A stretch of 64,000 bases of DNA from Octopus vulgaris (Eukaryota), in the NCBI GenBank assembly GCA_951406725.2, contig OX597821.1, positions 110,794,001-110,858,000 of the forward strand. The letters are read 5' to 3'. Positions 28,482 to 35,884 of the stretch are shown here, piece by piece. Position 1 is the stretch's first letter; every line of letters starts with the position of its first letter. The notes beneath the pieces were generated by a model. It was not told the DNA's origin and did not search any database. It saw nothing but the letters and a program-made list of their open reading frames with translations. A program made the translations under genes and the position numbers.

Positions 28482-28845
28482 TATTTTAAATGGGGAAGGC
28501 TTGTTTATGGGATTGCCATAGGTTTCCCGTCCATAAAGGTTTTAGATTTATGGCGTATCGTCAGATCCCAAAAACCTGTTGGTCCGCGACTCCTTCAAAA
28601 TATGGAGGGGGAAATGCCTCACGACTCAAAGAAAAAAAAACTTTAAGTAGTGAGGCATTTCCCCCTCCATATTTTCAAGGAGTCGCGGACCAACAGGATT
28701 TGGGGATCTGACGATACGCCATAAATCTAAGCCCTTTATTGACGGGAAACCTATGGTAATCCCATAAACCGGCGTTCCCCATTTTTAAAATATACTGCTC
28801 AACATCTTAGAGTGTGCTTCTTCTTTCGGATTTGTTTTCTACAAA

Positions 28846-28847
<2 letters not shown>
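28482..28847. mobile_element. Fold-back mini-element with about 140-bp arms, HHR motifs and a 55-nt tail, between (TA)n tracts
   Basis: Arms 28482-28622 and 28650-28792 are near reverse complements. Confidence 0.85.
28703..28763 (+). ncRNA. Type I hammerhead ribozyme motif
   Basis: gggat-CTGACGA-(helix II, imperfect base)-GAAA-CC-tat-GG-TA-atccc; GUA triplet, predicted cut after 28758. Confidence 0.75.
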
Positions 28848-28883
<36 letters not shown>

Positions 28884-28886
<3 letters not shown>

Positions 28887-29039
28887 ACGGGCTTCTTTTA
28901 GTTTCCGTCTATCAAATACCCTCACAAGGCTTTGGTCGGCCCCAGGTTATAGTAAAAGACACTTACCCAAGGTGCCACACAGTGGGACTGAACCCGGAAC
29001 CATGTGGTTGGTAAGCAAGCTATTTACCATACAGCCACT

Positions 29040-29042
<3 letters not shown>
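28884..29042 (-). mobile_element. SINE family A, head portion
   Basis: Reverse complement of 2471-2635. Confidence 0.8.
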
Positions 29043-29102
<60 letters not shown>

Positions 29103-31413: not shown

Positions 31414-31467
<54 letters not shown>

Positions 31468-31596
31468 AATAGTAAAGAGTGAAAAAACGACAGAAGGCTT
31501 AAATGTTAAAAAATATATATATTTGCGTCAATATGTCTGATGAATATTAGAAAATTTTAAAAAAAAATTTTTTTCTCTTATAATGACATAATTTAA

Positions 31597-31635
31597 AAGA
31601 AAGACCGGTTTCGCGTGTAGCTTTTCAAATTTCTT
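31597..31635 (-). ncRNA. Minimal type I HHR motif (U3-A8 variant) in the 3' pseudo-LTR
   Basis: aagaaa-t-TTGAAAA-GC-tacac-GC-GAAA-CCGG-TC-tttctt. Confidence 0.7.
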
Positions 31636-31768
31636 GTGACGTTATGTTTATGTTGAATAGAGTTATCGTTGTGTTTATGTTCCGGAGAGTTCTAAATAAG
31701 GGGAGGTAGTGGGTGATTTCTTCCGGTGTAAGGGAGATAATCGCTTAAAAATTTTTTTTTCCTTTCCC

Positions 31769-32788
31769 TTAATGTGAATTTCTCTTTATCAGTATGTTCG
31801 GATGGTTGAGTCTGGGCTTGTACTTTTCAATGAAGAATGTTTCCTTGTTTAGTCTAATTTGTGTTGATGATCCGAAAGCACATTGGTAAAATGGAAAGAT
31901 TAAAAATTGTGGTAGTAGTTGCTTTGCGCATTTCTCAATGTGCTCACTAAAAGGTATCATTCTATATTCTGGGAATGCAATCTGTTGTCGATGCAGTGTG
32001 CATCTACGTCTGAGTGATAGTCCCGTGGAACCCACGTAGTCTTGGTGGCAGCCCGAGCATTTTATGACATAAATTATGTTTTCAGAGGCACAAGTAAAGT
32101 TAGATTTGATCTTGAATTTCTGTCCCTCTTTAAAGAGGAATTCTGATCCTTCTAGCAGGTTAGGACATGTTGCACAGTTCGATCTACCACATTTTTTTAC
32201 TTTTGCATCCGTAATTTCAGAAGACAATTTTGCCTTTGTGAGAATCTTTTTAAGTGATTTAGGCTGTTTGTAGCTTTTAATGATTTGGTGTATGTTTAGA
32301 ATTTCCTTTAATTTTGGGTTTTTATGAAGTATTGGTAAATTCTGGGTGATGATGGTGAAGGCTTCTTTGTTTCTGGGGTTGTATGTAGATATGTAAGGTA
32401 GTATTTTCGGGGAAGGTGTGTTGTTGTGTTGAACTTTTCTTAAAGTTTCTATGTTGATTTCTGTTGCACGTCTGATCCCATCCTCTATGAGTTGAGCTGG
32501 GTAATGTCTGTCAATTAGGGTGTTTTTGAGTTCTTGCAGTCTAAAGTTCCTGGTATTTTGTTCTGACACTATTGTGCATATCCTTCTTGCAAGGTTGAAG
32601 GGGATGTTTGTTTTAGTGTGTCTTGGGTGGCATGAATTAAAAAGAAGGTATTGTTTGGCGTCTGTGGCTTTGTAAAAAATGTCTGTTTCTATTTTAAGGT
32701 TAATTTTTTTAATTAGTATATCCAAGAACGGGAGCTCCTTTTGGTTGTATTCCATTGTGAACTGTATATTTGGGTTTATGCTGTTCAA
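31769..32788 (-). CDS. PLE polyprotein C-terminal part: RT thumb, Cys-rich linker, GIY-YIG endonuclease
   Basis: LPFLD, KKCGRSNCATC, NIIYVIKCSGCHQDYVGST...RRCTLH...EH; frame extends upstream through WKRFLDDCF (RT catalytic DD). Confidence 0.92.
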   Translation of the reverse strand: MNSINPNIQFTMEYNQKELPFLDILIKKINLKIETDIFYKATDAKQYLLFNSCHPRHTKTNIPFNLARRICTIVSEQNTRNFRLQELKNTLIDRHYPAQLIEDGIRRATEINIETLRKVQHNNTPSPKILPYISTYNPRNKEAFTIITQNLPILHKNPKLKEILNIHQIIKSYKQPKSLKKILTKAKLSSEITDAKVKKCGRSNCATCPNLLEGSEFLFKEGQKFKIKSNFTCASENIIYVIKCSGCHQDYVGSTGLSLRRRCTLHRQQIAFPEYRMIPFSEHIEKCAKQLLPQFLIFPFYQCAFGSSTQIRLNKETFFIEKYKPRLNHPNILIKRNSH

Positions 32789-32871
32789 TAGGTTTTTAAA
32801 TTTTAGGAGTTTATCTGTGTTTTCATTCCAGAGAATAAAACAATCGTCTAAGAATCGTTTCCAATTCTCTT

Positions 32872-33639
32872 TTATGTATTGAGAGAGGGGTTTCCAAAGA
32901 TTGATAAAGATTCCTGGTAAATGATTATTTCCATGTATCCCATTGTTAAGTTCGCAATGACTGGTGCTGCCCTTGTACCCATAGCAATTCCGGATTTTTG
33001 ACGGTAAAATGTATTGTCAAACATGAAGTGGTTATTGTGTAGGATGAATTCAATTGATTTAGTAATGAATTCTTTACTGATCCTTTTTGGTATTTCTTCC
33101 GGAAATTGGTCTAACCAGAACTGTATTGCCTCCAGTCCATAATTATGAGGTATACTGGTATACAAGTTGACTACATCAAATGAAACCAGGATTGTTTCTT
33201 CCTTGGCTTTTTTTGGAAGGTGGTTTAACATATCTAAGTCATCTCTGATATGGCTATCGATATGTTTAAGGAAGGGTTTCAGGAGGATGTCCATAAGTAG
33301 ACTTAGTCTGTGTGTTTCACAGGTTGGGCCAGCTACAATGGGTCGTAGTTTTAGGTCCCCCGGGTTAGGTGTGTGTATGTATGTCTTTGGTGATGTTTTA
33401 ATGGTTTCATTTATAATTTGACTTTTATGAATTTTTGGCAAACCATAGAAAAGGCTAGGTTTGCATTTAAAGTTTGTTAGGAAGTCAATCTCTTTGGTTG
33501 TTAGTTCCTTTTCATGGGTTTTAATTAGTGAAGATAGAGTTTTCATTATTTTTTGTGGGGTGTAGTTGGTAATTTTTTCATAATGTAGGTCGTCATCAAG
33601 CAAGGAAATTACAAGATTTCTGTAGTATGATGTATCCAT
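32872..33639 (-). CDS. PLE reverse transcriptase core
   Basis: FYGLPKIHK, LRPIVAG, SFDVVNLYTSIP, YRQKSGIAMGTRAAP; frame is open upstream through IKEADKGNAVV to about 33941; 1-nt frameshift near 32887-32890. Confidence 0.92.
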   Translation of the reverse strand: MDTSYYRNLVISLLDDDLHYEKITNYTPQKIMKTLSSLIKTHEKELTTKEIDFLTNFKCKPSLFYGLPKIHKSQIINETIKTSPKTYIHTPNPGDLKLRPIVAGPTCETHRLSLLMDILLKPFLKHIDSHIRDDLDMLNHLPKKAKEETILVSFDVVNLYTSIPHNYGLEAIQFWLDQFPEEIPKRISKEFITKSIEFILHNNHFMFDNTFYRQKSGIAMGTRAAPVIANLTMGYMEIIIYQESLSIFGNPSLNT

Positions 33640-34033
33640 TATTACAACTGCATTTCCCTTGTCTGCTTCCTTAATGGTTATATCCTCATCATTTTGAAGT
33701 TCTATCAGTTCTTTCCATTGTGTAGTGTTAAAATTTGAGTTAGCTTTCTGTTTATGTATAGTATGGTAGGGAAAGTTCTCAATGTGGTTACAGAATTCGT
33801 CAAGATCTTTATTTCTTCCTCTGTGTGGGATGTGTTCACTTTTGTTCTTGACTAGTGATTCATCTTCAGTATTGAAACTGTTTGATGCTTCTGCTAGTCT
33901 TAATTTTCTGTAAAATTCTGTTATATTATCCTTGATTTCATTTTGTTGGCTCTGCGTGGAGTTGGTGTAAATTTGAGCCCTTTTGAGAGGATGTCAATTT
34001 TTATGTTAGAAAGAGGTTTGGTTGAAAGATTGA

Positions 34034-34702
34034 TTATCTTCGGTTTTTCCTTATTACTAGGTTCCAGCCTGTGTCCTGGTGTCCCTGGTCCCTGGCTAAA
34101 AAATGTTGGGTGTAATTTTGTTTGTATGAGTTGTCTGTGAGGTTGTGTGATATTTGGTCGGGGGAGTGGTGGTATTGTTGCCCCCGATCGTTGTGTGTGT
34201 GTGGGAATCTATGGTTGTTTTTGTTTGTGGTGTGTGTAAAATTTCTGTATGGGAAATATTTTTGTTTCGAACTGCTTGTATGTGGGATGTTGCTTGACAT
34301 AGTGTATTTTTGCGTTTGTCTTGTGTTTAGTGGGGACCAGTAATTTTGGTTCATGGGGTAGTAGCGACTTGTGTGTGGTGTATTTCTTATTCTAGTGTCG
34401 TTTTGTGCTGTATGGTGGTTGGGTCTGGTATTAGGATGTTGTTGGTGTGTTCTATTTTTGGTGTAATTTATTTCATAGACGCGTCGTCTGTCAGCTAGTT
34501 CCCTGTTAGGTCTTGCGTGGTTTGCAAAGGTTGGTTGTGGGTGATTTCTGTTTTTAGTGTATGGAGGATAGTTGGGGGTTGTTCGTGGGTTGTTTGGTTT
34601 TTCTTTTTTATTTTTTGTAATTTTCTTAAGGAAGGGATTATTTGTACCCAATTCATTTTTGAAAGTTGCACTGTATTTTTGGAAGAAGTCCATGTTTTTC
34701 AC
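34034..34702 (-). CDS. PLE N-terminal basic, low-complexity region (ORF1-like, 5'-truncated)
   Basis: Open 222-aa N/T/H/K-rich frame inside the element, overlapping the frame that encodes INLS...ILSKGLKFTPTP. Confidence 0.6.
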   Translation of the reverse strand: MKNMDFFQKYSATFKNELGTNNPFLKKITKNKKEKPNNPRTTPNYPPYTKNRNHPQPTFANHARPNRELADRRRVYEINYTKNRTHQQHPNTRPNHHTAQNDTRIRNTPHTSRYYPMNQNYWSPLNTRQTQKYTMSSNIPHTSSSKQKYFPYRNFTHTTNKNNHRFPHTHNDRGQQYHHSPDQISHNLTDNSYKQNYTQHFLARDQGHQDTGWNLVIRKNRR

Positions 34703-35029
34703 AAGTCCATGTTTTTAGTGAGCACATTGAGAAATGCGCAAAGCAACTACTACCACAATTTTTAATCTTTCCATTTTACCAATGTGCTTTCGGATCATCA
34801 ACACAAATTAGACTAAACAAGGAAACATTCTTCATTGAAAAGTACAAGCCCAGACTCAACCATCCGAACATACTGATACGGAGAAATTCACATTAAGGGA
34901 AAGGAAAAAAAAATTTTTAAGCGATTATCTCCCTTACACCGGAAGAAATCACCCACTACCTCCCCTTATTTAGAACTCTCCGGAACATAAACACAATGAT
35001 AACTCTATTCAACATAAACATAACGTCAC

Positions 35030-35068
35030 AAGAAATTTGAAAAGCTACACGCGAAACCGGTCTTTCTT
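35030..35068 (+). ncRNA. Minimal type I HHR motif (U3-A8 variant) in the inverted pseudo-LTR
   Basis: Identical inverted copy of 31597-31635. Confidence 0.7.
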
Positions 35069-35241
35069 TTAAATTATGTCATTATAAGAGAAAAAAAATT
35101 TTTTTTTTTAATTTTCTAATATTCTTCAGACATATTGACGCAAATATATATATTTTTTAACATTTAAGCCTTCTGTCGTTTCTTCACTCTTTACTATTTT
35201 CTGTATTTTCACCCACGTGCTTTCACAAACCAACTTTCTTA

Positions 35242-35276
<35 letters not shown>

Positions 35277-35282
35277 TTTGAG

Positions 35283-35739
35283 ACTTTTATTTATTTTAGC
35301 TATTTGACTGCGGCCATGCTGGAATACCACCTTTGGTCGAACAAATCGATTCCCAGGACTTATTCTCTTTAAGCCTAGCACTTGTTCTATCGCTCCCTTT
35401 TGCCGAACCGCTAAAGTGCGGAGACTTAAGCACCCAGCGTCAGTTGTCATGCGACGTTGGGAGGACAAACACAGGCACAAAAACACACATACATACGCGC
35501 ACACACACACACACACGCACACACACACGCACACACACACACACTTATATATGCGTGTGTATGTGTGTGTGTGTATACGACAGGCCTATTTCAGTTTCCG
35601 GCTATCAAATTCACTCACAAGGCTTTGGTCGGCCTGAGGCTATACAAGAAGACATTTGCCCAAAGTGCCACGCAATGGGACTGAACCCGGAACTATGTGG
35701 TTGGGAAGGAAGCTACTTACCACACAGCCAATCATGCGC

Positions 35740-35740
<1 letters not shown>
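35283..35740 (-). mobile_element. SINE family A, full length
   Basis: Reverse complement of 2471-2895. Confidence 0.85.
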
Positions 35741-35837
<97 letters not shown>

Positions 35838-35848
35838 ATATATATATA

Positions 35849-35884
<36 letters not shown>

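Follow-up and report, generated by a model that had tools for sequence, protein, structure and literature searches.

Hammerhead viroids and viroid-like circular RNAs (Avsunviroidae) adopt a rod-like fold and carry hammerhead cores in both polarities, and pairing would block the active fold. In animal DNA, the closest described systems are the Penelope-like elements (PLEs). The accessible part of a 2014 study describes dimer-type hammerheads with a palindromic helix III in PLE repeats, a G10.1-C11.1 pair conserved among PLE hammerheads, and dual hammerheads on opposite strands ~100–700 bp apart; many dispersed motifs are probably tied to truncated PLEs, and activity in vitro is low (PMC4209133). 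An inverted, 5′-truncated PLE copy with a short 3′ tail is described in the available portions of both PMC8969392 and PMC8557442, the latter giving a tail of 30–40 bp and (TA)n targeting. PMC3846280 names the head-to-head layout as the commonest inverted PLE arrangement and proposes another way to reach such a structure, through self-priming on an antisense template. For Poseidon of Anolis carolinensis (PAc), PMC11167929 reports that both target strands are cut and extended, that two start sites set the tail, and that hammerhead cleavage is protein-assisted and dispensable for insertion. Retrozymes are defined by tandem units and are derived from PLEs, according to the available text of 10.64898/2026.07.22.740005.

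Recently active Penelope-like insertions have been reported in Octopus vulgaris, in a paper whose accessible text does not contain the word ribozyme (PMC13282606). Among the papers listed by a literature search combining octopus and hammerhead ribozyme, none dealt with the subject, as judged by titles and the openings of abstracts; supplements or repeat libraries may name the family considered here. We analysed a 64-kb stretch of O. vulgaris DNA, hereafter the window, that contains a hairpin with opposed hammerhead motifs. In our analysis, the hairpin very probably comprises two 3′ ends of one dispersed repeat, placed head-to-head in (TA)n by what was likely a single aborted PLE insertion, and the mirror hammerheads are predicted to be its passive, decaying by-product.

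Structure of the hairpin and its flanks

The original prediction placed a 366-bp hairpin with opposed hammerheads at this locus, and such a structure is present. Its two 154-nt arms are ~90% complementary, with mismatches in 12 of 141 ungapped columns, and are separated by an A spacer (Table 1). Because the tail that follows the right arm is unpaired, the 366 bp correspond to a ~313-bp hairpin plus tail. TA-type microsatellite lies at both outer ends, the 3′ end of the left arm pointing into a TA/CA tract, and within these microsatellite flanks no target-site duplication is discernible. The element had been taken as non-coding, and this is supported. The 366-bp copy holds no RT/GIY-YIG ORF. 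A scan for promoters and terminators gave nothing, using bacterial models that are not applicable to a eukaryotic host.

Table 1 Features of the hairpin and of the neighbouring element (positions in the window)
Feature	Position	Strand	Description
Left arm	28478–28631	−	5′-truncated 3′ end (pLTR-like) of the repeat, tail-less; 3′ end faces left
A spacer, 9 nt	28632–28640		Probable head-to-head junction of a single insertion; not conserved
Right arm	28641–28794	+	5′-truncated 3′ end of the same repeat as the left arm; 3′ end faces right
Optional tail, 53 nt	28795–28847	+	On the right arm only, without partner in the left arm; then (AT)n
Type I hammerhead, right arm	28703–28763	+	Core intact, GUA site; cut predicted at 28758/28759
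Type I hammerhead mirror, left arm	28509–28569	−	U16.1 to C at +28515; predicted inactive
Near-full-length PLE of another family	31461–35243	−	RT + GIY-YIG, frame broken; both ends in (TA)n

The hairpin RNA is predicted to fold as a rod of −245 kcal/mol. Eight of the 12 arm mismatches are transversions and only three give G-U on the plus strand; this scarcity of G-U and excess of transversions leave no sign of selection for rod pairing. The same eight transversions rule out A-to-I editing as the origin of the arm differences. Against Rfam, neither the hairpin nor the isolated right arm matched a hammerhead model, either at the gathering score or with the threshold relaxed to E 10, and all miRNA matches to the hairpin fell far below the gathering score, as generic hairpin scores.

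Hammerhead motifs of the 366-bp copy

The right-arm motif had been predicted with a 5-bp helix I and a GUA triplet, and both were recovered. Helix I pairs GGGAT (28703–28707) with ATCCC (28759–28763), the core consists of CTGACGA (28708–28714), GAA (28746–28748) and H17 (A28758), and helix III spans 28749–28757. When held against the core CUGANGA, GAAA and UH with helices I–III, the right arm fits, whereas the left arm fails at U16.1, in line with the earlier prediction that the minus-strand mirror is inactive. The left motif nevertheless keeps helices I and II better than the right one, in which substitutions at 28726, 28740 and 28754 weaken helices II and III. At its base, helix II offers no more than a U-G plus bulges, and the G10.1-C11.1 pair is absent (11.1 is G28745, and A9 is followed by U and then A). 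A generic type I descriptor matched three times in the window, at 28708 and twice in the neighbouring PLE, compared with a mean of 0.015 on 200 dinucleotide shuffles (3 of 200 with one match); the Rfam hammerhead models gave no match at the gathering score anywhere in the window.

Both motifs of this copy look damaged. Constrained to the active fold, the right motif has a predicted energy of −6.2 kcal/mol versus −14.2 kcal/mol for the minimum free energy (MFE) fold, a gap of 8 kcal/mol; the corresponding predictions for the left motif are −16.1 and −19.4 kcal/mol. The predicted pairing probability of the right helix I is 0.05 for the motif alone and 0.0 inside the full hairpin. By these folding models the right motif would misfold, and the masking of the right ribozyme by arm pairing, anticipated in the original prediction, is reproduced. 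The CUGANGA core occurs a single time per strand within 26.5–31 kb. With one cut site per strand, two same-strand cleavages cannot release a unit-length circle, and no circle is expected.

A dispersed family with two end points and variable joints

Contigs from four of 21 listed public sequencing runs, representing four studies, were aligned to 28482–28847 at 80% likeness; the best share of sampled words in any listed run was 0.14, none reached half, and no RNA run was among those listed. Matching contigs numbered 1,401, 1,312, 1,602 and 1,039 per run. On sequence likeness, the hairpin arm is a member of a dispersed, high-copy repeat family. Summed contig depth, which we do not equate with copy number, is concentrated on the last ~100 nt, with its maximum at bin 28755–28767 and only 0.4–0.9% of that peak at the centre bin (28625–28637). 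Truncation is only part of the reason for the low depth upstream of the hammerhead; the subfamily of this copy has also diverged there. One run contained a single differing contig over the A spacer, and in the other three coverage was absent or minimal; because inverted repeats break contigs, the absence of a spanning contig proves nothing.

The right-arm end of the repeat occurs in two forms. In the four runs, 24, 24, 33 and 27 contigs stop at 28794 and continue as (TA)n, and 22, 33, 31 and 22 contigs continue through the tail to 28847 and then enter (TA)n. Such a pair of end points agrees with what is described for PLEs, an optional tail and a preference for (TA)n targets (PMC8557442, PMC11167929). 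On the left-arm side, loose ends that precede 28488 consist of (TA)n in 16 and 21 contigs of two runs. Among the best 15 of 99 joints, nine lead from the left arm into the right arm; no two of them lie at the same place, and each is carried by one or two contigs per run. Only three of the nine keep both whole motifs, and no dominant head-to-tail joint is found among these 15. Recurrent joints at varying points indicate that head-to-head joining recurs in the family and that this hairpin is no conserved unit. A further joint, from 28794 to 28833 in one contig of each of two runs, switches strand from the tail-less end to the tail, which suggests that tail-to-tail arrangements occur, though rarely, among family copies.

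Among 40 of 111 entries, both arms depart alike from the family majority at no fewer than seven mirrored site pairs (28518/28754, 28546/28726, 28583/28689, 28586/28686, 28587/28685, 28591/28681 and 28592/28680). Such shared departures mean that both arms likely came from one template or were homogenised later; gene conversion between the arms could have done the latter.

We found no RT or GIY-YIG ORF linked to the family: the 366-bp copy has none and the neighbouring PLE shows no DNA similarity to the family. The loose ends of contigs, as listed, extend only tens to ~130 nt past the aligned part. Membership among the PLEs is therefore inferred from structure. The family pattern had no matches in metagenome contigs and none in viral contigs.

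A probable dimer-type ribozyme in the family

At 28515, the U16.1 state accounts for 90–93% of family depth, so the mutated left core is a rare family variant. The majority bases at 28726 (83–94%) and 28740 (83–91%) yield an 8-bp helix II, weakened in the right arm of the 366-bp copy. Those at 28754 (84–87%) and at its mirror 28518 (68–88%) make helix III a palindrome around a 1-nt loop. A palindrome around one unpaired base cannot close within a single molecule. In the 366-bp copy this palindrome is lost.

The shares of the minor changes at 28518 and 28520 vary in step between the runs (10.8/11.4, 10.4/10.6, 28.7/29.2 and 18.4/21.4%), the linkage of the two changes being drawn from matching depths and not read on single contigs; jointly, they would turn U-A into C-G. 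The self-duplex of the 9-nt helix III has an energy of −8.2 kcal/mol in the majority form, −11.6 kcal/mol in the minor form and −5.2 kcal/mol in the 366-bp copy, and none of the three folds alone. Helix III thus carries an apparent compensatory variant in the family. The original prediction had staked its reading on covariation of the helices among homologues: the covariation argues for a genuine family ribozyme, though one of dimer type, as in PLEs. As judged from these base frequencies, the family ribozyme looks real and dimer-type. An apparent natural compensatory change that is sensible only in a dimeric helix III offers a clean test case for dimer-dependent cleavage.

Origin of the hairpin

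We conclude that the hairpin most probably represents an inverted PLE insertion that was truncated twice. Its likeness to endonuclease-bearing PLEs (Penelope/Poseidon, Neptune, Nematis and Hydra) includes head-to-head inverted 3′ ends with a tail on one end, a (TA)n target and 5′ junctions that vary. In both, a type I hammerhead whose helix III is palindromic lies a short way upstream of the 3′ end. There are also differences. The hairpin copy lacks an ORF, and its family has a longer helix I and a 4+4 helix III palindrome. Two features of the sequence argue against PLE membership: the 53-nt tail exceeds the 30–40 nt described, and the G10.1-C11.1 pair that is conserved in PLE hammerheads is missing. 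A sense hammerhead upstream of two alternative reverse-transcription starts, which set the extent of the tail, is common to the family and PAc (PMC11167929), as are AT-rich targets in which both strands are cut. In contrast, the PAc ORF starts inside the hammerhead, and no such frame is evident in the hairpin arms; PAc cleavage moreover required protein and was not required for insertion in vitro.

Published PLE biology suggests how such an insertion could arise. A PLE RT/GIY-YIG protein would nick both strands of AT-rich DNA, and the element RNA would be reverse-transcribed twice from alternative sites, once from the tail end (28847) and once from the tail-less end (28794). Both cDNAs would halt after ~150–200 nt, and their 5′ ends would be joined. 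In the active family, the hammerhead may dimerise via its palindromic helix III and process tandem transcripts. In the 366-bp copy, by contrast, a read-through transcript would simply fold into a double-stranded stem.

The main rival differs in what the family is. It could be a non-autonomous, retrozyme-like PLE derivative, ORF-less and moved in trans by a PLE protein, with the hairpin a chance head-to-head insertion; we consider this unlikely, and adopting it would change little. The failure to find a linked ORF and the focus of depth on the last ~100 nt are compatible with such a derivative, as are animal retrozymes reported in the accessible text of 10.64898/2026.07.22.740005 as PLE derivatives, solo monomers included, but 5′ truncation also gives strong 3′ enrichment. 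The metazoan non-LTR retrozymes of that text resemble the family in being non-coding and PLE-related and in carrying a type I hammerhead, yet they are built of tandem units each with a hammerhead, whereas our locus has no tandem units and holds inverted copies whose 3′ ends run into (TA)n, and a dominant head-to-tail joint is missing from the best 15 of 99. A bolder variant, which we hold to be quite improbable, makes the family a hammerhead parasite of an octopod PLE, present in many copies, lacking an ORF and equipped with an obligate-dimer ribozyme. Its many head-to-head copies would be transcribed hairpins for small-RNA silencing or A-to-I editing, and editing would loosen the stem and enable cleavage.

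Other readings treat the whole hairpin as an entity in its own right. The long, near-perfect inverted repeat could suggest a MITE-like or foldback unit that amplifies whole, or a kept host gene for a hairpin RNA, and the three left-to-right joints (among the best 15 of 99) that retain both motifs lean in the same direction. We nonetheless deem either very unlikely: junctions vary and the centre lies below 1% of peak depth, a figure tempered by the breaking of contigs at inverted repeats; the one-sided tail makes the ends asymmetric; the arm mismatches do not favour pairing; and the sub-threshold Rfam miRNA scores speak against a hairpin RNA gene. The original prediction of a retrozyme- or viroid-like rod as a unit is not supported. 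A rod RNA whose hammerheads work in both polarities, and which replicates by rolling circle and was inserted into the genome, would account for the predicted rod fold, the cores on both strands and the predicted masking, but we regard it as extremely improbable. By symmetry the two strands give the same RNA, with one site each; the left core is mutated, a state rare in the family; neither the centre nor the pairing of two whole motifs is conserved; and the ends fit (TA)n insertion. Unlike in the Avsunviroidae, the hairpin motifs mirror each other within host DNA and one of them is mutated; each strand has a single site, and nothing indicates a circle. The claim of hammerheads in both polarities therefore stands insofar as motifs lie on both strands, but the two polarities are the geometric result of one inverted duplication.

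Since this arrangement was described in 2014, the hairpin matters little in itself and adds one more truncated PLE-type insertion. More broadly, it serves as a warning for scans, because an inverted PLE insertion alone can yield a rod with hammerheads in both polarities in animal DNA. A small gain is that hammerheads of octopod PLEs did not appear among the papers listed by our literature search, as judged by titles and abstract openings.

A neighbouring PLE and other features of the window

A near-full-length PLE lies 2.6 kb from the hairpin. It carries an inverted, 5′-truncated copy (34713–35205; 484 of 492 positions identical, 98%) and a tail of ~37 nt on the inverted copy only, a layout that equals the inverted-plus-tail layout of the hairpin but with a long main arm. 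The insertion is young. Its ORF is broken twice, near 34035 by a stop and near 32875–33016 by a frameshift. Weak RT and GIY-YIG matches span 31772–33993, relatives of the protein carry RT and GIY-YIG domains, and the linker, CX4CX2C, is of the Neptune/Nematis kind. The best named relative is labelled Argonauta hians (55% identity), in keeping with an octopod host, and a 99% identical fragment is present in the protein collection; a search of metagenome contigs with the protein gave 85 pattern matches, none of which was confirmed. As a donor of the hairpin this element was ruled out, blastn giving chance matches only. With DNA similarity to the hairpin family absent, it serves as an analogue and not as a shown donor.

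The pLTR of the neighbouring element has no hammerhead match in Rfam. Within its terminal repeat, at 31525–31640 and the mirror 35025–35140, lie two overlapping hammerhead candidates on opposite strands that share one CCGG palindrome. The sense candidate is a variant with a U3-A8 core, a G10.1-C11.1 pair and a GUC site, with one extra U before the core; the antisense candidate matches CUGANGA at +31537 and has three G-U pairs in helix I.

The window as a whole is microsatellite-rich. Of its 325 open frames, 133 remained after complexity filtering, and six of these matched Pfam at E up to 0.01. The curated cut-off was passed by a Transposase_1 fragment alone, a partial DDE domain at 46869–47204 (−). 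A 228-codon open frame at 19894–20577 (+), which adjoins a C-rich, strongly skewed stretch, resembles Synaptobrevin weakly, at E 0.0008 and short of the cut-off, probably by chance. Short interspersed repeats that are 73–85% alike occur at 2459–2875, 19199–19396, 28853–29052, 35275–35860, 42723–43957 and 46118–46542, among other places. One such repeat begins a few bases past the hairpin tail and overlaps the (AT)n flank of the hairpin; we take the short repeats flanking the hairpin to resemble octopus SINEs.
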